Source: Candidatus Iainarchaeum sp. | GTDB lineage: Archaea; Iainarchaeota; Iainarchaeia; Iainarchaeales; JAZDFD01 | Length of the DNA stretch: 64,000 nucleotides | Assembly: GCA_043808155.1 (NCBI GenBank) | Contig: JAZDFD010000014.1 | Coordinates: forward strand, 1 to 64,000 | Reading direction: 5' to 3' | In this document: piece after piece, positions 10,262 through 22,154 of the stretch | Layout: every line of letters begins with the position of its first letter | How positions within the stretch are numbered: position 1 is the first letter of the stretch | Position numbers and translations under genes: made by a program | The notes under the pieces: generated by a model | Databases searched by the model: none | Seen by the model: only the letters and a program-made list of their open reading frames with translations | Told to the model about the DNA's origin: nothing

Positions 10262-10378
10262 CTTAACACCTTTTTATGTATAACCGACTGAACAATGGTT
10301 TTAAAGCATTTTCATGAGGGAAGTCAGTATATTGTATTAATTTGTAATATTTAAACGTATTTGAGATGGGGGATATGC

Positions 10379-11497
10379 ATGGAGAGTTTTATTAAAAAAG
10401 CAGTTAAAAGAGCTAAAACTGAAGAAACCAGATCCAAACTTCCTAATTTGAGAGGAAAAGACGATGAAGAACTAATGAAGCTTCTGGAAATTTCACAGGC
10501 AAAAATCCGAGTTATTGGTGTCGGAGGCGGAGGAGGCAACACAATCCAGAGAATGACTGAAGTTGGAATTGTTGGTGCTGAAACAATTGCTATTAATACT
10601 GATGCTCAAGATCTTTTAGAAACACAGGCAGACAGAAAATTACTTATTGGAAGAGAATTAACAAGAGGTTTAGGTTCAGGCTCAGACCCTTCAATGGGCG
10701 AAGCTGCAGCACGTGAAAGTGTTGATGAATTAATGGAATACCTCTCAGACTCAGACCTTGTGTTTATCACCTGTGGAATGGGTGGCGGAACAGGAACTGG
10801 TGCTGCTCCAATAGTTTCAGAAATTGCAAAAGAATGCAAAGCACTTACAATTGGTGTTGTCACTTTGCCATTCACTGTTGAAGGAAAAAGAAGAATGGAA
10901 AACGCATTAAGCGGTTTAGCAAACTTACGAAAGCACTGCGACACTGTAATTGTAATTCCAAATGATAAGATTTTGGAAATTGCACCTGACTTACCCGTTA
11001 ACGCGGCATTCAAAGTAGCAGATGAAGTTCTTACAAACTCAGTAAAAGGAATTACTGAAATGGTTACAAAACCTGGATTAATTAACCTTGACTTTGCTGA
11101 CCTTAAAACAATCCTCAAACGTGGGGGGGCTGCAATGATTGGTCTGGGTGAATCTCAGAGCAACGAAATTTCAGACACTAGAGCTTTGGAAGCAGTTGAG
11201 AATGCTTTAACTTCTCCTTTGCTTGATGTTGACATTTCAGATGCTAACAGAGCACTAATAAATGTCATTGGCGGAAGTGATATGACTCTTAGAGAGGCTG
11301 AGATGATTGTGGAAACAGTTTCATCAAAAATCTCTCCAAATGCACATATTATTTGGGGTGCAATGATTGATGATGAAATTCCAAGAAACCAAATCCAGGC
11401 AATGGTTGTTGTCGCTGGGGGAAAATTCCCATACTTAGATTTTGCAGAAAAAGCCCAAAGTGATGAGCCTCTTGATTTAGGAATTGAGTTTACTTAA
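10379..11497 (+). CDS. ftsZ: cell division protein FtsZ
   Basis: GVGGGGGN, GMGGGTGTG tubulin signature and NLDFAD; ftsZ-secE-spt5 synteny. Confidence 0.97.
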   Translation: MESFIKKAVKRAKTEETRSKLPNLRGKDDEELMKLLEISQAKIRVIGVGGGGGNTIQRMTEVGIVGAETIAINTDAQDLLETQADRKLLIGRELTRGLGSGSDPSMGEAAARESVDELMEYLSDSDLVFITCGMGGGTGTGAAPIVSEIAKECKALTIGVVTLPFTVEGKRRMENALSGLANLRKHCDTVIVIPNDKILEIAPDLPVNAAFKVADEVLTNSVKGITEMVTKPGLINLDFADLKTILKRGGAAMIGLGESQSNEISDTRALEAVENALTSPLLDVDISDANRALINVIGGSDMTLREAEMIVETVSSKISPNAHIIWGAMIDDEIPRNQIQAMVVVAGGKFPYLDFAEKAQSDEPLDLGIEFT

Positions 11498-11503
11498 TTG
11501 GCA

Positions 11504-11568
11504 ATGGCACTTCAGTGCCATCTGCATTCGCCGGGCGTGACGGCGATTGAGTTCACGTAAGTGAATTC
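11504..11568. repeat. palindromic dispersed repeat, copy A
   Basis: Hairpin atggcac-ttca-gtgccat followed by gccgggcgtgacggc; reverse complement matches 26150-26189. Confidence 0.75.
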
Positions 11569-11643
11569 TAATTTTCTTTTTTTCCTTTTCTTTGCAAGCT
11601 AAAGCTTTATAAACTATCCTCAGTCCTAATTATTAGTGATTTT

Positions 11644-11820
11644 ATGGTTTTAAACTACATTACAAAATTCCGTGATGATACAAAAAGAATCTTCACAATT
11701 TCAAAGAAGCCCACATGGGAAGAATTTAAGGTAATGGCAAAAGTCACAGGAATAGGCATACTTATAATCGGCATTATTGGCTTTTTTGTAAGCTTAATAT
11801 TTGCTTTCATTAAGGTTTAA
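11644..11820 (+). CDS. secE: protein translocase subunit SecE (Sec61 gamma)
   Basis: Manual 58-aa ORF: RIFTISKKPTWEEFKVMAKVTGIGILIIGIIGF; located between ftsZ and spt5. Confidence 0.92.
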   Translation: MVLNYITKFRDDTKRIFTISKKPTWEEFKVMAKVTGIGILIIGIIGFFVSLIFAFIKV

Positions 11821-11890
11821 GGAGTAAGCTTTTTAATGGTTTTAGAGCGTGATTTTTTTTAACACTCATTTATATTTAAAGTGATTTTAT

Positions 11891-12331
11891 ATGATTTTTC
11901 CAGTAAGAACAACAGTAGGACAAGAGCAGTTAGTTGTAGATATACTTAGCAATAAGATTACAAATGAAGAACTGAACATTTACTCAATTGCAGTAATCCC
12001 TGGTTTAAAGGGTTATATACTGATTGAAGCAGATAATGAAGTTACTGTAAGACGAGGAATTACAGGAACTCCGCATATTAAAGGCTCAGGAATTGTAAAA
12101 GGCGCAGTTAATATTAATGAACTTTCAACTTTGCTTGATGCAAAACCTTTAATGAAATCAATTAAACCCGGAATGACAATTGAATTAATTTCCGGACCAT
12201 TCAAAGGTGAAAAAGCAAGAGTTTTAAGAGTTAATGATACTAAGGAAGAAGTAACAATTGAGCTTTTGGAAGCTGCAGTCAAAATTCCAGTAACAACAAA
12301 AGCAGAAACAATAAAAATTATAAAGGACTGA
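11891..12331 (+). CDS. spt5: transcription elongation factor Spt5/NusG
   Basis: RTTVGQE, KGYILIEA and KOW motif GPFKGEKARV. Confidence 0.95.
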   Translation: MIFPVRTTVGQEQLVVDILSNKITNEELNIYSIAVIPGLKGYILIEADNEVTVRRGITGTPHIKGSGIVKGAVNINELSTLLDAKPLMKSIKPGMTIELISGPFKGEKARVLRVNDTKEEVTIELLEAAVKIPVTTKAETIKIIKD

Positions 12332-12336
12332 TTGAA

Positions 12337-12810
12337 ATGCCAGAAGTAAGTGTATTAATTGACGGTGGAAAAGCAACTGCAGCAGCACCATTAGGGCCTG
12401 CATTAGGGCCAATGGGTGTAGACATTGGAGCAGTTGTTGCTAAAATCAATGAAAAAACAAAAGATTTTTCAGGAATGAAAGTTCCGGTAAAAGTAATAAT
12501 TGATTCAACTAATAAAAGTTTTGAAATTAAGGTTGGTTCTCCTCCTGTTTCAGCACTGATTAAAAAAGAACTCAATATTAAAAAAGCAGGAACTGATCAC
12601 AAAGTAGATCACGCAGGAAACTTAACTATTGAACAGGCATTAAAAATTGCAAAAATGAAAATTGACAATTTAATTTCATACACTATGAAATCCGCAATGA
12701 AAGAAATCGCAGGAACCTGCAGATCAATGTCGGTCACAATTGACGGCAAAAGTCCAGCAGAATTCAGCGCAGATGTAAATGCTGGGAAATACGATTCTGT
12801 TTTGCAGTAA
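12337..12810 (+). CDS. rpl11: 50S ribosomal protein L11
   Basis: GGKATAAAPLGPALGP and GMKVPVKV. Confidence 0.95.
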   Translation: MPEVSVLIDGGKATAAAPLGPALGPMGVDIGAVVAKINEKTKDFSGMKVPVKVIIDSTNKSFEIKVGSPPVSALIKKELNIKKAGTDHKVDHAGNLTIEQALKIAKMKIDNLISYTMKSAMKEIAGTCRSMSVTIDGKSPAEFSADVNAGKYDSVLQ

Positions 12811-12829
12811 GTTTGGTTCTCGCCCACAA

Positions 12830-12938
12830 CCTATTTAAACCTTTCTAGATGACAATTACTAATTAATAGCGCTAATTTTAGCGCCGTTTGTACTACCTGT
12901 CTCCTTTTGAGGAGAGCCCCTGGTAGGAGGTAATTAAA
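12830..12938 (+). promoter_or_regulatory. putative internal promoter and structured leader of rpl1-rplP0-rpl12
   Basis: TATTTAAA box near 12832; hairpin gcgctaa/ttagcgc; ctacc..tctcct-tttg-aggaga..ggtag stem abutting the GGAGGT RBS. Confidence 0.4.
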
Positions 12939-13592
12939 GTGGACATGAAAAATGCACTAGAATCTCTGAAGAAGGTAAATGAAACCTCAAAAGAGAGAAA
13001 ATTCGCTCAGAGCATTGAACTGATAATCAATTTCAGAGGTTTGAATTTCAAGAAACCAGAGAACCAAATAGACGTAAGAGTAGAATTACCTCATGCAACA
13101 GGAAAAATCTCAGGAAAATCACTTCTTTTTGCAAAGGACACAACCTTTGTCGCATCTGTAAAAAACAAAGTTGACCGCATTATAATGGAAGAAGAAATTT
13201 CCAAACTAAGCAAAAAAGATGTAGGTTTGATTATTTCACAATTTGATATTTTAATGGCTGAAGGCCCCGTAATGCTGACAGTTGGTAAACATTTAGGTCA
13301 GATTTTAGCACCTAAAGGAAAAATGCCAAGTCCTGTTCAGCCAACTGACTCTTCAGTAAGACAAACATTAACTAAATTAAGCACAGCAACAAGAGTCACA
13401 AACAAAAAAGGAAAATTTATGCCTTTAGTTCAGGTTGTTGTTGGAAAAGAAGGAATGCCGGAAAATGACATTGCTGAAAATATGGTTGCTGTTTATAATT
13501 CTGTTTTAAATTCATTGCCTGGTAAAAAACAAAACATCAAAAACATCTATGTAAAGAAAACAATGAGTCCCGCAGTAAAGGTGGTGGAATAA
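12939..13592 (+). CDS. rpl1: 50S ribosomal protein L1
   Basis: RKFAQSIELIINF, LGQILAPKGKMP and KTMSP. Confidence 0.95.
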   Translation: MDMKNALESLKKVNETSKERKFAQSIELIINFRGLNFKKPENQIDVRVELPHATGKISGKSLLFAKDTTFVASVKNKVDRIIMEEEISKLSKKDVGLIISQFDILMAEGPVMLTVGKHLGQILAPKGKMPSPVQPTDSSVRQTLTKLSTATRVTNKKGKFMPLVQVVVGKEGMPENDIAENMVAVYNSVLNSLPGKKQNIKNIYVKKTMSPAVKVVE

Positions 13593-14704
13593 TGACAAGA
13601 CACATTTTTGTATGGAAAGAAAAAGAAGTTACTGAAATCAAAGAACTTCTCTCAAAGTATCCTGTTGTTGCAGTTGCAAACTTAGAAAACTTCCCTGCAT
13701 CACTATTTCAGGAAACAAGAAAAAAATTAGCTGGAAAAGCAGTAATTAAAGTTTCAAAAACAAGAGTAATTCAGAAAGCACTTGCAGGAGGCAAATCTGA
13801 AAAACTCTCAGAAAATGTATCAAAATCAGTTGCATTAATTTTTACTGAAATGAATCCTTTCGAACTTTACGGCTTCTTAAAAAAGAACAAAGGTTCAACT
13901 TCTGCAAAATCAGGAATGGTAGCACCTGCAGATATTGTTGTTCCTGCAGGTGACACAGGATTGCCACCAGGACCTGCACTTTCAGATTTAAAAGCAGCAG
14001 GATTAAAAACAAAAATTGAGGGTTCAACAATTGCAGTTGCAGAAGATAAAGTTGTAACAAAAAAAGGAGACATAATTTCAAAAGCAGTTGCAAACTGCCT
14101 TATAAAATTAGATATCAAACCAATTAAAGTCGGGCTTAACATTGTCGCAGTACTTGAAAACGGAGAGATTTACAGAAGCGAAGTTCTTAACATTGATGCA
14201 GATGAAGTATTTGCAAACTTTTCAAGAGCTTATACTGCAGCTTTCAATCTTGCATACAATGCAAACTACCTGACTAAAGATACAATTGTTTTCGTCATCC
14301 AAAAATCATTCAGAGAAGCAAAAGCAGTTGCTCTGGAAGCAAATATTTTCACACAGGAAACAGTTGAGGAATTGTTTGGTAAAGCTTCACTACAGGCTGA
14401 CTCTTTACAATCTTCATTACCTGAAGTAATGGTTGAGGACAAAGCAGAAGCACCTGCAAAAGAAGAGAAAGCAGAAAAGAAGAAAGAGAAAGCAAAACCT
14501 GCAGAAGAAAAATCAGAAGAAAAAAAAGAAACATCTGCAGAAAAGAAAGCAGAACAAGCACCTGCAGAAGATAAAAAAGCAAAACCTGCAGAAGAGAAAA
14601 AAGAAAAAACTAACGAAAAAGAAAAAAAGAAAACAAATACTGCAAAAGAAAAAAATGCAGCAAAAAAGGATACTGATAAATCAAAAAATAAAAAATCAGA
14701 ATAA
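13592..14704 (+). CDS. rplP0: 50S ribosomal protein L10/P0 with long Lys/Glu-rich tail
   Basis: WKEKEV, NPFELY and PAGDTGLPPGP; position between rpl1 and rpl12. Confidence 0.93.
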   Translation: MTRHIFVWKEKEVTEIKELLSKYPVVAVANLENFPASLFQETRKKLAGKAVIKVSKTRVIQKALAGGKSEKLSENVSKSVALIFTEMNPFELYGFLKKNKGSTSAKSGMVAPADIVVPAGDTGLPPGPALSDLKAAGLKTKIEGSTIAVAEDKVVTKKGDIISKAVANCLIKLDIKPIKVGLNIVAVLENGEIYRSEVLNIDADEVFANFSRAYTAAFNLAYNANYLTKDTIVFVIQKSFREAKAVALEANIFTQETVEELFGKASLQADSLQSSLPEVMVEDKAEAPAKEEKAEKKKEKAKPAEEKSEEKKETSAEKKAEQAPAEDKKAKPAEEKKEKTNEKEKKKTNTAKEKNAAKKDTDKSKNKKSE

Positions 14705-14728
14705 TTATGAATGAATGGAGGGAATAGA

Positions 14729-15034
14729 ATGGAGTACGTATATAGTGCTATGTTGTTGCACTCTGCTGGCAAAGAAATTACTGAAAAAGCAGTCACAGAT
14801 ATTGTGAAAGCAGCAGGCGTCGATGTTGACAGCTCAAGAGTTAAAGCATTGATTTCAGCTCTTAAAGATATTAACATTGAAGAAGCAATAAAGAAAGCAG
14901 CAGTTGTTCAGGCAGCAGCCCCCACAGCAGCTCCCGCAGCCGGCGGTGCAGATTCAGCAAAAGCAGAAAAGAAAGAAGAAGAAAAAAAGACAGAGGAAGA
15001 AGCTGCACAGGGCCTAAGTAGTCTTTTCGGCTAA
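14729..15034 (+). CDS. rpl12: 50S ribosomal protein L12/P1
   Basis: [11 protein letters not shown] start and GLSSLFG C-terminus. Confidence 0.95.
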
Positions 15035-15102: not shown

Positions 15103-17394
15103 ATGAAATCATTCACTGCTAAATGCATTTTTTTGATATTTTTACTTGTTCTTACAGTAAATGCATCTGCAATAATCACTGAATCATCTTTGGATTTATT
15201 TGCAGTTACTGATGCCGGAGATGCAATGACTGCAAACCTGACACTCACGATTAAAAATGGCAATGGAAAAGTATGGAGTTCTGTTACTCCCTTGGTCGGA
15301 ACAACAACTCAAAATACTGAACGAATTGCAGTAGAACTCGCAAAAAACTATTTCACTGGTGTTGAAAAGTATGATTATCACTTTCAGATTCAAAGTTCTG
15401 CATCACTTGTAGAAGGCCCGTCTGCAGGTGCTGCAATGGCACTGCTTGTAATTTCAATGCTTCAGGACAAAACAATTCCTGATGATGTTGGTTTAACTGG
15501 AACAATAACTCTTGAAGGGGGCGTGGGTTCTGTTGGTGGTGTTTTTGAAAAAAGTAAAAAAGCATCTGAAATCGGAAAAAAACTATTTATGATTCCCCGA
15601 GGGGAAGCGAGACAGATTGTGAAATTGGAAGATGGAGTTCAGTCAATAAATCTTGTTGAATATGCAGAAGAAAACTGGGGCCTGAAAGTTGTTGAAGTTG
15701 ATGATATTGATGATGTTATTTCATATGCGTTTTCAGATATTGAACAAATTGATGTAAACAAAGAGTTCACTGCCATTCCTGAATTCATACCCGCATCCGT
15801 GCAAAGAGATGCTCATTTGGATGTAATGAACGAACTCACAAAACTTTACATCAACAAAGCAGATTCAAAAATAAATGAAGCAAAGAATGCGCTTTCAGGT
15901 TCTTTAATCCAAGATCACGGAGCTATTGGCACATTATATGAAATACTAAATTCTGGCGAAAAAGCAATTTCCGAAGCACGCCTGCTAATTGATCAAAATT
16001 ATCTTTACTCTGCAGCAAACTATTCTTTTCTTGCGTATGTAAATGCTGCGCTTGTGCATGATATTGCAATTAATCCTTCACTGCTTAATTTGGATTCGGA
16101 AATATTCATTACAAAAGTAGATGAACTTGAATCAGACATACAGTCACTGCAATCGGATTTGTCAAACAATGTGCCACTTGATTATCTTGAATGGCATATT
16201 TCTGCACAACAGCGTTTAACTTATGCTGATAACCAGCTAACAGAACTGAAAAATACAGAAATTGTTATAATTGGAGGCGGAGATGATACGTTCGCAGCAC
16301 TTGAAAGAATAACTGAGTATGAGTATGCAAAAGCATGGTATGAGGTTGCAAGTGATTTTTATGGGATTTCTAAATCCACTCTTAGAAAAGCGAGGCCAGA
16401 CAATAGTTTTGAGGAACTTGCATCTGAAAAACTCACAAAAGCAGAAGATGCTTTGCAAATTCTGAATGAAGAAGCGAATGCAGATATTTTCAGACGAGCG
16501 GATTCTGCAAAAACCCAGTTCAACAGAAAATGGTATCTTGGTTCTTTATTTGATTCTGCAGCTGCAGTTTCATTAGCCGAGTCTGAACTCGCAATTAAAG
16601 ATAAAACCGCAGATGAATTAATTGAATTACTTGATAAAAAAATAACTGAAACAGAACAAACAATGGCTCAGAGCAAAATGTCATTTATCTGGTCACGCCT
16701 TTATTTAGATCATGCAAAATATTACTACAATGCAGCCGTATTCTACAAAGAAAACAATTTGGGAATGCGCTCTCTTGATGCTGCAAAAAATGGAATAGGT
16801 CTTGCATATTTAGCAGAAGGAATTGTGGAACCTTCAATCGAAATTTATAATTATTATGCAACCATGTCACCTGAAGATTATATTCAGGAAAATAAAACAG
16901 TTGTTAGCGTGAAAGAAGACTCACCTTACTTGATGCTGCTTTTAGTTCTCATTTTAGCACTTACAATTCTGTTAGTTGTTCTCACAATTGTAAAAATAAT
17001 GTATACCAAGAAGCATCCAAAACAATCTATTGAACATCAGATTGGAAGCATGAAGAAAATCCAGCATGATTTAGATACCTCACTTGCGAGCAAAAAAATA
17101 AGTGCAAACAAATATCACGAACTTAGTAATGAATACCAGAAACAAATCGATTTATTGCTTTCTGAACGTGTGAAAAGAAGCCATAAAATAGTTGAAATAG
17201 ATAATCTCAATGCACGTTTGCATTCATACCGGCAGGCATTGCGTGATTTAGAAAAACATTATGCACAGGAACTCATTCTTGAAGAAGATTATAAACGAAA
17301 TGTACACTTTTATAAAGAATCAATTGACTATTTGGAAAAACTAATTGAAAATGAACAAAAAGATGTGAAAAAAATACCCAAACCACTGAAATAA
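15103..17394 (+). CDS. membrane-anchored Lon-like (S16) serine protease without ATPase domain
   Basis: Signal peptide, EGPSAG catalytic Ser, TGTI..G.VG.VGGVFEK catalytic Lys, late TM helix. Confidence 0.85.
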   Translation: MKSFTAKCIFLIFLLVLTVNASAIITESSLDLFAVTDAGDAMTANLTLTIKNGNGKVWSSVTPLVGTTTQNTERIAVELAKNYFTGVEKYDYHFQIQSSASLVEGPSAGAAMALLVISMLQDKTIPDDVGLTGTITLEGGVGSVGGVFEKSKKASEIGKKLFMIPRGEARQIVKLEDGVQSINLVEYAEENWGLKVVEVDDIDDVISYAFSDIEQIDVNKEFTAIPEFIPASVQRDAHLDVMNELTKLYINKADSKINEAKNALSGSLIQDHGAIGTLYEILNSGEKAISEARLLIDQNYLYSAANYSFLAYVNAALVHDIAINPSLLNLDSEIFITKVDELESDIQSLQSDLSNNVPLDYLEWHISAQQRLTYADNQLTELKNTEIVIIGGGDDTFAALERITEYEYAKAWYEVASDFYGISKSTLRKARPDNSFEELASEKLTKAEDALQILNEEANADIFRRADSAKTQFNRKWYLGSLFDSAAAVSLAESELAIKDKTADELIELLDKKITETEQTMAQSKMSFIWSRLYLDHAKYYYNAAVFYKENNLGMRSLDAAKNGIGLAYLAEGIVEPSIEIYNYYATMSPEDYIQENKTVVSVKEDSPYLMLLLVLILALTILLVVLTIVKIMYTKKHPKQSIEHQIGSMKKIQHDLDTSLASKKISANKYHELSNEYQKQIDLLLSERVKRSHKIVEIDNLNARLHSYRQALRDLEKHYAQELILEEDYKRNVHFYKESIDYLEKLIENEQKDVKKIPKPLK

Positions 17395-17428: not shown

Positions 17429-17845
17429 ATGATTGCAGAATCTGAACTTATTTTGAAACTTGTTATTTCTGTTTTATTAGGTTCCACTGTTGGAATTGAA
17501 AGAGAAATGCATCAGAGTTCTGCAGGAATGAGAACCCATGCGCTTGTTGCATTAGGTGCCACGATTTTCACAATAATGTCATTAACCTTTCTTGATGATT
17601 CCACAAGAATTGCTGCGGGAATTGTCACAGGAATTGGATTTATAGGTGCTGGTGCAATTTTCAGATCTGAAAATAAAGTAACAGGACTTACAACTGCAGC
17701 TAATCTTTGGGTTGTTGCTGCAATAGGTCTGGCAGTAGGTATTGGTTATTACTATGTGGCAGTTGCTGCTGCAATAATAATTATTGTAATTTTAATAGTC
17801 GGCAGAATATTTGAAAAAAAAGCATTAAACAGACGAGAGCATTAA
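17429..17845 (+). CDS. MgtC/SapB family membrane protein
   Basis: GIERE..AGMRTH, RIAAGIVTGIGFIGAG and GLTTAA. Confidence 0.9.
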   Translation: MIAESELILKLVISVLLGSTVGIEREMHQSSAGMRTHALVALGATIFTIMSLTFLDDSTRIAAGIVTGIGFIGAGAIFRSENKVTGLTTAANLWVVAAIGLAVGIGYYYVAVAAAIIIIVILIVGRIFEKKALNRREH

Positions 17846-17856
17846 ATAAATTTTAA

Positions 17857-20832
17857 TTACTCTGAAAATTTGTTGTTTTGAAGTTCTTCCTTTAACTTCA
17901 ATCCAATAACTGAACTTTTTTGTTCGTTTAATGCAACTCCGATTATCTGGTCTGCTTCTTTTATCAAAGGATCATTGTGAGTTATTGCAATAAACTGACT
18001 GCTTTTACTTATTTCCTTAATCATGTTCCCCAGCTTAACTGAATTTTCTGCATCGAGTGCTGCGTCTGCTTCATCAAAAATATAGAATGGTGCTGGCTCA
18101 TAAAGCTGAATTGCAAAAAGGAATGCTAATGCAGTTAATGTTTTCTCACCGCCTGACATTGAATCAATATTCTGAAGTGTTGTTTTGTGCTTTGCTTCGA
18201 TAAGTAAACCTGATTCAAGAGGCATTTCAGAATTTGTGAGTTTCAATTTTCCCTCTCCGCTGAAAAGTGAGAAAAACATTCTTCCAAAGTTTCCGTTTAT
18301 TTCATTAAAACAATCCAAAAACACATTTGTTCTTTTAACTTCAATTTTTTCAATCATTCCCAAAACACTGAATTTTTCCTCATCGAGTTTTTTTGATTTT
18401 GCTTTAATATCATCAACTTCTTTTTTCAGTTCTTCAAATGATTCAAGTGCTTTCATGTTTATTGCACCTAATCCTATAATTATCTTTTCAATTTCCTTAA
18501 TTCTGCTCTTTAGCCTATCTGCATCAAATGTTTCAAATCTTTTTACCCCTCTGAATTCAGCAAACTCTTCTTCTAAATCCAGAAGCCTTACTTCGTTTCT
18601 GCTGTTATCGATTTTTGATTCATTCATCTGGTGTTCATTTTTTCTGATGTCCTGATCGACTTTTATTATTTTTTCAACTATTGAATCATTTTTTTGTTCA
18701 AGCATATTTTTATCATCAATCAGTTTCTTATTTGCTTTCTGAGCATCCTTTAGTTCGTCATCCATTTTTTCGCTTTTCTCAATAAGCACTTTGTGTTTTT
18801 CATTTTCGTCAGTGATTTCATTTTTCAGTTTTTCATTTTCTTTTCCAAGTTCTTCGATTTCTTTTGAATGTGATTTTAAATCATCACTGATTCTTTCAAT
18901 TGTTTTTGAAATAATGTTGTCTTTTCTCTCATTAAGCATGGCAATTTCATTTTCAAGCATATCTTTTTCTTTTTCCATTCCTGCCCGTTTGTTAATTCTG
19001 CCTGATTTCATTTCTGAAAGTTTATCATTCTTTTCATTAAATTCGTTTTCCAGAACAACAACTTTTGATTTGAGCTTTTCGTATTCTTCTTTTTCTTTTT
19101 CAAGAAGCTGTTCCTCAAGTGAGCTTTTGAGCTTTTCTATTTTTTCATCTTTTGATTTTTTTTCATGTGAAATGGATTTGAGCATTTCGACTTCGGGATC
19201 GAGCTCCCGTATTTTTTCAAGTGCCTCATTTAGTTCCTTTCTTTTTGCTTCAACTTCTGCCTTCTTCTTTTTTGCCTTTTCCAGTGAATTGTCTGAAATC
19301 TTCAGTAGTTTCTCTTTTTTATCAAGAATTTGCTTCTTTACATCTTTCTCAAGATTTCTTTCACAAGTAGGGCATTTTGAAATATCTTTTTTCAGTTCTT
19401 TGATTGCATCTCTGTGCATGTTACTTTCTGCTTCATGCTGTTTGATTTCTGTGAATGTTTTTTCATATGTATTTTCTATTTTCTTAATTTCTTCATTAAT
19501 GGAAGGATGTTTCATCTGAACTACATTCAGAAGCTGTTTTTTATTTTCAAGTTCATTAATTTTTCTTTCAAAAACAGACTTTTCTTTCATAAGCTCTGAA
19601 ATCATTTCTTTCTTTTCTCTGTTTGATTCTTCAATTCTTGGAATTACTGAGCCTTTTTCATAGTAAGTTTGTTTTTTTTCATCGAGTGATTCTTCCAGTT
19701 CCATAACTTCTTTTTCAAGTTTTTTTATTTCATTTGAAATGTCTTCAGTATCAAAAATATCAAGATTTGTTTTTGCATCAATAAGTCTCTCTCTTAACTC
19801 GGAAAGTGTTTTTTGAGTCTCATTCATTTTATTTTTCTGAGCCTCAAGTTCATTGTTTTCCTTTTCTGTCTTTTCTTTTAATTCCGCCTGTCTCAAATCA
19901 TTCCTCTCAAGATAACTTTTCTTTGTTTTAATTCTTTCATCAGTAACACGTATTGCAGATTTTGTTTCTTCAAGCTCTTTTGCTATTTCTGTGTATGCGC
20001 GTTCATTAGATCTCAGTATTTTTTCATTTAATTCATAAATACGGGTTTTGTTTTTGCTTTCCTGTTCTTTTAGGTTTTTCTTTTCATCTTCTTTTCCCTC
20101 AATTGTCTGTTTAAAAGCAGTTAAATGTCTTTCATTAGTTTCCATTTTTTCTCTTATTTTTTCAATTTCTTTATAAATTAAAGTTGCTTTTGACATTTTC
20201 TTTTCGTTTTCAAGATTTTCATATTCTAATGTTGCATTTTTGTCTTTTTCTAAACCTGCCAGATAATTTTCACGTTCGTGCAAAACAATTCCAACTTCTT
20301 TTATTTTTTCATCAACTTTTTCTAATTCTTTAAGTGCTTCTGCTTTTTTTTCATCAAACTCACGCAAACCAGCCATGTCATCAATTATTTCACGTCTTTC
20401 AATCGGTGACATTTCAATAATTCTTGTTATGTCGCCCTGTGCAACAATGTTATGGCCTGTGGCTTTAATGCCGAGCTCCCTTAACAATGATGTAATTTCA
20501 CTAAGTGTAACTTTGTTATCGTCTAATTTGTAAACACTTCTTCCCTGTTTATCAATGATTCTTGCAAGTTCATAGTTTCGTCCATCGCCTTTAATAGTCA
20601 GTTCTACTTTTGCATAATTTTCAGAAGAAGATTTGTTTACTAAATCAATTATCTTTGAAGCACGCAATGCTTTCATTGAAGTGATTCCCAAAACAAACAT
20701 TATAGAATCAAGAATATTGCTTTTTCCAGTTCCGTTTGCACCTACAATAACTGTGAACCCGTCACTTATTGGTATTTTTGCATCTTTGAAAGATTTGAAA
20801 TTTTTCAATCTTAGCTTTTTTAGCTTTATCAT
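17857..20832 (-). CDS. smc: SMC-family ATPase with central CPTC zinc-hook-like motif and no recognisable hinge
   Basis: NFKSF, GANGTGKSN Walker A, VAQGDI Q-loop, GAINMKA, MSGGEK signature, PFYIFDEADAALD Walker B; CPTC at residues 487-490 of 991. Confidence 0.9.
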   Translation of the reverse strand: MIKLKKLRLKNFKSFKDAKIPISDGFTVIVGANGTGKSNILDSIMFVLGITSMKALRASKIIDLVNKSSSENYAKVELTIKGDGRNYELARIIDKQGRSVYKLDDNKVTLSEITSLLRELGIKATGHNIVAQGDITRIIEMSPIERREIIDDMAGLREFDEKKAEALKELEKVDEKIKEVGIVLHERENYLAGLEKDKNATLEYENLENEKKMSKATLIYKEIEKIREKMETNERHLTAFKQTIEGKEDEKKNLKEQESKNKTRIYELNEKILRSNERAYTEIAKELEETKSAIRVTDERIKTKKSYLERNDLRQAELKEKTEKENNELEAQKNKMNETQKTLSELRERLIDAKTNLDIFDTEDISNEIKKLEKEVMELEESLDEKKQTYYEKGSVIPRIEESNREKKEMISELMKEKSVFERKINELENKKQLLNVVQMKHPSINEEIKKIENTYEKTFTEIKQHEAESNMHRDAIKELKKDISKCPTCERNLEKDVKKQILDKKEKLLKISDNSLEKAKKKKAEVEAKRKELNEALEKIRELDPEVEMLKSISHEKKSKDEKIEKLKSSLEEQLLEKEKEEYEKLKSKVVVLENEFNEKNDKLSEMKSGRINKRAGMEKEKDMLENEIAMLNERKDNIISKTIERISDDLKSHSKEIEELGKENEKLKNEITDENEKHKVLIEKSEKMDDELKDAQKANKKLIDDKNMLEQKNDSIVEKIIKVDQDIRKNEHQMNESKIDNSRNEVRLLDLEEEFAEFRGVKRFETFDADRLKSRIKEIEKIIIGLGAINMKALESFEELKKEVDDIKAKSKKLDEEKFSVLGMIEKIEVKRTNVFLDCFNEINGNFGRMFFSLFSGEGKLKLTNSEMPLESGLLIEAKHKTTLQNIDSMSGGEKTLTALAFLFAIQLYEPAPFYIFDEADAALDAENSVKLGNMIKEISKSSQFIAITHNDPLIKEADQIIGVALNEQKSSVIGLKLKEELQNNKFSE

Positions 20833-20893: not shown

Positions 20894-21700
20894 TCATGGT
20901 TCCATATTGTGTTCTTTCTTGAGATAATACATGGGGAATGCAGCATAAGTATATGCTGAAGCAAGACCTGAAAAGATTGCAAATATTAATGCATCAACAT
21001 ACTCATTTACATAAATTAAATTGAACATTGAAAGTCCAATATTATTAATCAAAGCAGTAACAATCATAATAAAGACAAACAAAGTTAAAACACCTAACAA
21101 ATTTTTACCTGTGAACGCCCAGCTTTTTTTAAGCGCTTCTCTTATGGAAATATTTTCCATTGCCATTACTGGAATCACAAATGAAAGCTTAATCCACAAA
21201 TATGCCAGAAGCAACATATAAATCAGCATAATAATTCCAACAAGTGCATATGGACCTAATGAAATAATCATCATAATCCACAGAATAAAGAGCAGAACAC
21301 CCCACGCAAATGTAAAAAACAAAAGTAAACCAATAATTTTCACTATGTTTCCGAGCATATAACCAAATGCCATGCCTTTAGATGCTTTTTTTTCAGCAGT
21401 ATCCCGGATGTATTTTGAGAAGAAAAATGAAAGTAACGTAGATATGATGAAAAGGGAGGCTATCATTGCAAAAACCGCCCCAAACCCAAAAGGATACATC
21501 TCAATAAAATGAATTGGAAATGCCAATGCACCAGTCTCAGGCAAAATCCCAAAAAATAAAATGTCTGCAATCATTTCACCAATTGGCTGGCCAAGAAGCA
21601 TGAGCAGGCCCATACTTAATGCTCCGCCCAAAATCGCCAATATTGGCATTGCAGGTTTCTTGAGCAAAATCTTAAAAGAATTCAATAATGTGTCAATCAT
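20894..21700 (-). CDS. multi-pass membrane protein
   Basis: About 6 hydrophobic segments; ENISIREALKKSW motif typical of glycerophosphodiesterase membrane-domain-like proteins. Confidence 0.7.
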   Translation of the reverse strand: MIDTLLNSFKILLKKPAMPILAILGGALSMGLLMLLGQPIGEMIADILFFGILPETGALAFPIHFIEMYPFGFGAVFAMIASLFIISTLLSFFFSKYIRDTAEKKASKGMAFGYMLGNIVKIIGLLLFFTFAWGVLLFILWIMMIISLGPYALVGIIMLIYMLLLAYLWIKLSFVIPVMAMENISIREALKKSWAFTGKNLLGVLTLFVFIMIVTALINNIGLSMFNLIYVNEYVDALIFAIFSGLASAYTYAAFPMYYLKKEHNMEP

Positions 21701-21869: not shown

Positions 21870-22154
21870 ATGGATATTCCAAAAACATCAATGGATTACT
21901 GTAAAAAGTGCAATAAACATATAGAGCATAAGCGAAAGCTCTTCAAGCCAGGCAAGGCAAGAGCTGACAGTGAAGGTACTCGTAAGAACGTGCGAAAAAA
22001 GAAAGGTTATGGCGGGAAATATCAGTTCACTGCAGTAGTGAAAAAGCAGAACAAAAAACCCGTCTTTATTATGGAATGTACTGCCTGCAAATCAAAGCAC
22101 TACAATGTAATTCCTAAAAGAATGAAGAAAATTGAAATTAAAGCTGCTGCCTAA
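21870..22154 (+). CDS. rpl44e: 50S ribosomal protein L44e
   Basis: YCKKCNKH, GYGG and ECTAC zinc ribbon. Confidence 0.9.
   Translation: MDIPKTSMDYCKKCNKHIEHKRKLFKPGKARADSEGTRKNVRKKKGYGGKYQFTAVVKKQNKKPVFIMECTACKSKHYNVIPKRMKKIEIKAAA

Follow-up and report, generated by a model that had tools for sequence, protein, structure and literature searches.

What kind of SMC-superfamily ATPase is encoded at 17857..20832 of this window, a stretch of archaeal DNA 64,000 nucleotides long? The plus strand over this interval is full of stops; the open reading frame (ORF) lies on the minus strand and specifies a 991-residue Smc-type ABC ATPase with a zinc-hook-like apex in the position of the hinge, a domain usually regarded as a defining part of SMC complexes. 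An initial annotation had proposed that Smc-type heads are here joined by a Rad50-like hook and that the product might serve a chromosome-organisation machine of its own. Our analysis bears out the architecture and gives a different account of the machine. We estimate at roughly 75% the probability that this is the Smc of Iainarchaeota with a Rad50-like CPxC segment in place of the hinge, likely forming a zinc-joined dimer that folds the chromosome with ScpA and ScpB. The architecture and orthology of the hooked Smc are well supported. We assign the lineage to Iainarchaeota (DPANN) because the closest named loci, at 51-60% identity, mostly carry the names Ca. Iainarchaeum or Diapherotrites.

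The heads are those of an Smc. The N-terminal head half (residues 1-160; 20353..20832, minus strand) contains Walker A (GANGTGKS, 31-38), R57 and the Q-loop residue Q132, and the C-terminal neck strand and head half (residues 802-991; 17860..18429, minus strand) contain the signature MSGGE (892-896), the Walker B/D-loop FDEADAALD and the H-loop ITHND, together making a split Smc-type ABC head with intact motifs. All of the motifs on which the initial annotation had based its Smc-type assignment of both halves are present (HNIVAQGD..., 127-147; GAINMKA, 789-795; MSGGEKT..., 892-908; PAPFYIFDEADAALD, 913-927). An alignment of 114 homologues shows little or no variation in R57 or in the residues of Walker A, the Q-loop, signature, Walker B, D-loop and H-loop, and column conservation is 0.70-0.79 in the neck and head versus 0.39-0.45 in the arms.

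Profile searches agree with this assignment. Pfam matches SMC_N, and the best NCBIfam match of the whole protein is archaeal Smc (TIGR02169, 551.8 bits, below its cut-off of 729.4), with Rad50 at 124 bits and the ASRP model NF045487 at 111.5 bits against a cut-off of 300. Scored alone, the N-terminal half reaches 196 bits with SMC_prok_A, 72 with the best Rad50 model and 30 with ASRP; the corresponding values for the C-terminal half are 205, 36 and 28.5. The heads share 46-51% of their residues with hinged Smc of sister orders and 33-43% with other Smc, compared to 20-25% with Rad50 and 18-20% with ASRP. Smc structures (5XEI, 5XNS, 4I99) top the PDB sequence search, and SMC complexes top a full-length Foldseek search in which Rad50 appears at ranks 7-8, a ranking of little weight for long coiled coils.

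Phylogeny places the heads in the same way. In trees of concatenated heads, with 51 rows under LG (five picked rows were lost to motif parsing) and 30 under a mixture model, the query falls inside the Smc clade (support 99/99 and 92/95, respectively) and not with Rad50; three ASRP rows form a separate clade in the LG tree. Uniting the hooked Smc and the order's Rad50 in one group is rejected (approximately unbiased test, p-AU 0.014). The protein therefore lacks a Rad50-type head, and neither its heads nor its full length match or group with the ASRPs. Many homologues are annotated only as "AAA family ATPase", and annotation that relies on a hinge or on CxxC misfiles hooked Smc proteins.

At the tip of the arms the resemblance changes. 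Pfam SMC_hinge (PF06470) has no match in the query or anywhere else in its genome (G000; 1.08 Mb, 88% complete). The AlphaFold model (mean pLDDT, the predicted local distance difference test, 77.8; predicted template-modelling score 0.39) is helical as far as residue 480 and again from 496; a short loop (481-495) links the two stretches, and the apex has no globular domain. The N-terminal neck and coiled-coil arm occupy residues 161-480 (19393..20352, minus strand; modelled helices 157-480), and the C-terminal arm, with the Smc joint GAINMKA, residues 496-800 (18433..19347, minus strand). Between them, at the arm tip, lies the CPTC motif (residues 487-490; 19363..19374, minus strand), whose C487 and C490 are predicted zinc ligands flanking P488. 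Both the missing hinge and the position of this motif had been anticipated from the sequence.

The surrounding residues resemble Rad50 as well. When residues 420-560 are searched against the PDB, only the Rad50 hook structures 6ZFF and 1L8D are retrieved (E 5e-5 and 8e-5; the next match has E 0.3), the hook being that of Pyrococcus Rad50. In hhalign comparisons, the profile of the Smc apex matches the order's Rad50 hooks with a probability of 99.0, three ASRPs with 96 and the hinge with 12. The hook segment spans residues ~469-510 (19303..19428, minus strand), where similarity to Rad50 exceeds that of shifted controls from ~18 residues before C487 to 23 after it. Hooked Smc proteins also retain the pattern of residues that borders the hook in Rad50 (L at -7, L at +7, KK, LL, K). 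By sequence and predicted fold, then, the protein has a CxxC zinc hook at its coiled-coil apex, as Rad50 does. A complex prediction with two copies of residues 420-560 and zinc scored 0.13 against a mark of 0.42 and was counted neither way.

The motif is conserved in orthologues. Of 120 homologues listed, 116 have CPxC, and in every one of these it lies 405-409 residues ahead of the ABC signature; the four proteins without it are 924-939 residues long. In alignment A1, whose 114 sequences omit these four hookless and two intein-bearing matches, C, P and C are invariant. Among 30 fetched loci, 26 have CxxC, the window's included; of the other four, two are shorter proteins, one is a fragment and one bears an intein. 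Since the whole 991-residue protein has only three cysteines and CPxC recurs at this fixed spacing, chance does not explain it. An assembly chimera is ruled out by the same junction in more than 100 independent sequences.

The hook sits on arms of ordinary Smc length. Across the 114 hooked proteins, Walker A and the apex are 457 residues apart (453-460) and the apex and signature 402, compared to medians of 459 and 406 from Walker A to hinge and hinge to signature in 94 hinged Smc. The antiparallel coiled-coil arm is thus canonical in length and carries the Smc joint. Because the globular hinge PF06470 is lacking, we file the protein as a hinge-replaced orthologue and not as a canonical Smc.

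No other candidate for this role was found in the genome. The 991-residue protein is the sole Smc-type match in G000, and the second SMC_N protein, on contig C13, is a separate 687-residue Rad50 with its own hook, CPLC. We found no hinged smc beside these two. The kleisin ScpA and the kite protein ScpB are encoded on contigs C15 (42-800) and C11 (20403-20951), and, as the initial annotation had noted for the neighbourhood of smc, neither scpA, scpB nor a metallophosphoesterase is matched on its contig, C14. Metallophosphoesterase matches lie on contigs C24 and C7; judged by its motifs, the one on C24 appears to be Mre11-like, and it and rad50 are on different contigs. At C13:1625-3157, 2.6 kb from rad50, is a gene that we take to encode a HerA-like ATPase. 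ParB_N has no match in G000, and we therefore propose no loader. Because the locus and arm length match those of hinged Smc in sister orders and ScpA and ScpB are present, we regard the hooked protein, as judged from these sequences, as the single, ordinary Smc orthologue of its order with the apex swapped, and not as the additional machine first suggested.

A hooked Smc that shares a genome with Rad50 could instead have been redirected to DNA-break repair, or could pair hook-to-hook with the resident Rad50 and so tie chromosome folding to Mre11-Rad50. The Smc hook does score almost as well against the order's Rad50 hooks (median 26) as those hooks score among themselves (mean 32). However, the well-conserved heads, neck and joint are those of an Smc, the distance from Walker A to signature is 862 residues versus 561 in Rad50, and the genome still has a dedicated Rad50 as well as an Mre11-like gene. 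A protein withdrawn into repair would also leave ScpA and ScpB with no other partner, as it comes from the only Smc-type gene found in G000. We consider a repair role very unlikely.

The same arrangement extends across most of the order. A match to the query protein is present in 144 of the phylum's 151 genomes. None of the 140 that belong to the same order has a Pfam SMC_hinge match, whereas 10 of the 11 from sister orders do. ScpA is present in 145 and ScpB in 139 of the 151 genomes, and all 55 high-quality genomes have both. Of 79 genomes in a census, 42 were hooked, 21 had neither a detectable hinge nor a hook, 6 were partial and 10 hinged; in these counts the entry for G126 is a script error, and G028 is filed as partial but is hooked in its fetched locus. 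The state could be read in 29 families, of which 22 are hooked; those not hooked are f2, f3, f6, f17, f22, f31 and probably f26.

Hinge and hook appear to be mutually exclusive at the apex. Among the best 150 representatives of 50% clusters, with the hinge scored by a custom hidden Markov model (HMM) built from 14 sequences, 100 have only a hinge, 36 only CxxC, 13 neither, and one has a hinge plus an off-centre CxxC; a hinge together with a central CxxC occurs in 0 of the 150. No Smc motifs were found in 60 hook loci, which do not amount to a systematic search for hooked Smc outside Iainarchaeota. A survey with NF003034 matched in 41 of 41 genomes, which is not a clean count of Rad50 because this model also matches Smc; the 30 loci fetched from it are separate hook-bearing, Rad50-type ORFs.

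In the window, smc is set in a housekeeping region that by composition is not an island. GC content and GC3, its third-codon-position counterpart, are the same near the hook as in the remainder of the gene, so no recent transfer is indicated there. Convergent with smc is a gene for a 763-residue protein with an S16/Lon-like protease domain (15103-17394, plus strand), and an MgtC/SapB-family gene (17429-17845, plus strand) sits between the two. Upstream of smc, an unnamed 268-residue membrane protein (20894-21700, minus strand) is common to at least 12 related loci. The intervals 10361-15034 and 21870-22154 hold what we take to be ftsZ, spt5 and the ribosomal L11, L1, P0 and P1 cluster, and L44e. 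The S16-protease gene adjoins smc in 36 of 69 loci, a redundant set with unequal flanks, and four of these are hinged. Two further hinged loci have the same ribosomal-protein neighbours in the same orientation.

Several results weigh against our reading, and they are best considered with the alternatives they raise. In G000, scpA and scpB are unlinked to smc. Zinc binding, dimerisation, kleisin binding and loop extrusion are predicted here by homology. The match to the hook itself is weak in Pfam: of the domain pattern expected from the initial annotation, SMC_N is present and SMC_hinge absent as foreseen, but Rad50_zn_hook at residues 475-505 reaches only 16 bits (E 0.011), below the 24.3-bit cut-off. 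With NCBIfam models, residues 401-600 score nearly the same for Rad50 (33.4 bits) and ASRP (33.0), with Smc at 15.

This near-tie, the hhalign probability of 96 against three ASRPs and the low complexity of coiled-coil sequence would suit a convergent origin of CPxC, or its derivation from an ASRP/ClsN-type gene instead of rad50. Position-specific similarity to Rad50 over the residues from about -18 to +23, in excess of shifted controls, argues otherwise. So does the 46-residue hook compared with C, P and C omitted: its median score is 32 against 29 Micrarchaeota Rad50 hooks and 26 against 30 from its own order, whereas 22 Thermoplasmatota hooks give -11 and 3 ASRPs give -17, although no ranking of donors follows because the sets were chosen differently (the Micrarchaeota hooks are top Pfam scorers, compared ungapped). 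Convergence or an ASRP source is, in our judgement, highly improbable, and a DPANN rad50 is the better match for the hook of this Smc.

The trees are also equivocal about the direction of change. Attachment of the Rad50/ASRP outgroup to the hooked stem goes unrejected, with p-AU 0.73 in a quick analysis (in which the constrained topology had the higher score) and 0.24 in a careful one. The constraint uniting hooked Smc, Rad50 and ASRP tests the position of the root rather than the identity of the heads, and the test has little power because very long branches lead to the outgroup. Nor is a single origin of the hook rejected (p-AU 0.25), which is no proof of it. Because the outgroup on the hooked stem stays unrejected, the trees alone give no direction, and the hook might be primitive, the mark of an early-branching Smc lineage that never possessed a hinge.

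Other evidence makes that extremely improbable. The best trees nest the query among Iainarchaeota Smc (83/95; order clade 88/87 and 90/90), and the corresponding locus of sister orders encodes a hinged Smc. In the rows listed for Micrarchaeota (121 genomes, by frame length), most Smc frames are 1100-1250 residues long, and 3 of 3 tested for a hinge were positive. Within the order itself, family f3 has an Smc of ~1084 residues without CxxC and with a ~95-residue alpha/beta apex in its model; the ten best Foldseek matches of this apex are all SMC hinges, though weak (best E 5e-3). By sequence, no hinge is detected in f3 with Pfam, the custom HMM or a PDB search, and the hhalign probability is 20. 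We read the modelled apex as probably a shrunken hinge (loci L049 in G002:C1, L050-L052 and L180-L189), which suggests a hinged ancestor for the order. It is thus from the shared neighbours, equal arm lengths, hook similarity and f3 apex that we take the change to have run from hinge to hook.

Further observations against our reading come from Smc proteins with neither hinge nor CxxC. They occur in f2, f6, f17, f22 and probably f26, are shorter, and in the first four of these families have ~65-125 fewer residues between Walker A and signature; loci L055, L056, L037, L054 and L260 (f2, f22, f17 and f6) encode such proteins of ~900-950 residues. Families f2, f17 and f22 are nested within the hooked clade (96/99), yet their genomes retain ScpA and ScpB, which shows that the hook can be dispensed with. 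Because f17 pairs with a hooked protein (97/95), apart from f2, more than one loss is suggested, and on these sequences the hook was probably lost repeatedly within the order.

Alternatively, the apex module might be unneeded: CPxC could merely cap the hairpin turn of an Smc-ScpAB motor whose dimers are held by arm-arm packing and kleisin. The hookless, hingeless proteins in genomes that retain ScpA and ScpB, the placement of f17 and f2, and a marine Actinobacteria SMC with neither hinge nor CXXC (PMC12153180) all speak for such a cap. Nevertheless, C, P and C are invariant in the 116 hooked homologues, compared to arm columns only ~40% conserved, and the flanking Rad50 pattern is kept too. 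Two cysteines per chain are also insufficient for a zinc site; in Rad50, each of two chains contributes two cysteines to a common site. We regard a simple cap as unlikely and favor a hook that joins two Smc chains.

The family varies in other ways. Short-armed hooked Smc at L039, L040 and L057-L059 (f24, f5 and f30) have 646-682 residues from Walker A to signature, versus 862, and co-occur with full-length forms inside the same families. The difference of ~180-215 residues is roughly 90-108 per strand, which fits the steps of ~91-100 residues in which B. subtilis Smc arm lengths function (PMC5344682). In f31, L053 (G030) and L191 (G117) encode a divergent Smc without CxxC and with a short hydrophobic apex segment; ScpB is unmatched in both f31 genomes and ScpA is present in one of the two. 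Inteins directly after the Walker A lysine occur in hooked and hinged proteins alike (P0109, P0112, P0122, P0148; L024, L032, L048), and one intein-bearing relative has a homing-endonuclease Pfam match. Outside the phylum, L092-L094 (Actinomycetota) encode a 781-residue Smc with no hinge and no CxxC, and at the apex of a 1104-residue Smc from Caldisericales (L089) the custom hinge HMM detects nothing.

Among known systems, Smc-ScpAB (TIGR02169; Pyrococcus Smc 5XEI, 5XNS, 4I99) is the closest, sharing the head halves, neck, joint, arm length, single copy, ScpA and ScpB in the genome, and neighbours common to hinged orthologues. The hooked Smc differs in lacking the hinge (~155-165 residues), in its CPxC apex and in falling below the TIGR02169 cut-off. 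With Rad50/SbcC (1L8D, 6ZFF) it shares the CPxC hook and ~40 flanking residues, but its heads are only 20-25% identical, its arms are longer and a true Rad50 is encoded separately. The ASRPs (Sulfolobus ClsN, Halobacterium Sph) are likewise archaeal SMC-superfamily ATPases with a zinc-hook motif, but form a separate family of ~600-680 residues whose heads are 18-20% identical and whose model gives 111.5 bits against 300.

ASRP/ClsN proteins carry a zinc-hook motif, and ClsN organises chromosomes (PMC9389158, PMC9764264). Burmann et al. 2017 engineered a B. subtilis Smc(Zh) whose hinge was replaced by the P. furiosus Rad50 zinc hook and which supported normal growth (PMC5344682). Its architecture is the same and the arm-length rule is kept, but Smc(Zh) is a bacterial laboratory construct, whereas the hooked Smc occurs naturally and has become fixed in most of an archaeal order. 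B. subtilis can do without DNA binding by the hinge (10.1101/495820); given this and the normal growth with Smc(Zh), a hook-dimerised motor is plausible. The reverse swap has been made in Rad50 (PMC6969161). The marine Actinobacteria protein mentioned above has true SMC heads without a hinge, but it is bacterial and lacks CXXC, and so resembles the hookless offshoots rather than the hooked protein (PMC12153180).

The natural form appears to have gone undescribed. In the part available, one study files DPANN Smc as canonical with zinc unmentioned (PMC8665677), and its supplementary trees may contain hooked sequences; a term search of the available text of 10.1101/2024.01.07.573240 and PMC11840125 returned neither "hook" nor "DPANN". 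In the full-text literature, with subscription journals mostly outside the search and supplements excluded, we found no report of a zinc hook in a natural Smc. In print we found the hinge-to-hook swap only as the engineered Smc(Zh).

The following account would accommodate these results. Early in the order, one in-frame swap would have replaced the hinge (~155 residues) with ~40 residues of a DPANN rad50, and several hook losses would have followed. In the present protein, C487 and C490 of each subunit would share one Zn2+ as in Rad50, joining a homodimer at the arm tips. By analogy with Smc-ScpAB, ScpA would bridge neck and cap and ScpB would bind ScpA. ATP-driven head engagement would then capture and move DNA loops with neither a hinge DNA site nor a hinge gate, and the hook-dimerised Smc and ScpAB would fold and segregate the chromosome much as ordinary Smc-ScpAB does. 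More tentatively, at slightly under even odds, all of the apex types (hinge, shrunken hinge, hook and bare tip) may still extrude loops with ScpAB, leaving the order with a hinge-free condensin.

The hinge figures in models of SMC loading and loop extrusion through a hinge gate, DNA binding and hinge-to-head movement (PMC10512200). On this more tentative reading, the hinge, its DNA-binding site and its gate would be dispensable for SMC motor action in nature. The order-wide natural replacement itself shows that a hinge-to-hook swap survives long-term selection. It also probably records the passage of a domain from one main branch of the SMC superfamily to the other. The natural series of hinge, shrunken hinge, hook and bare tip, on long and short arms, offers a means to probe what an SMC motor needs at its apex.

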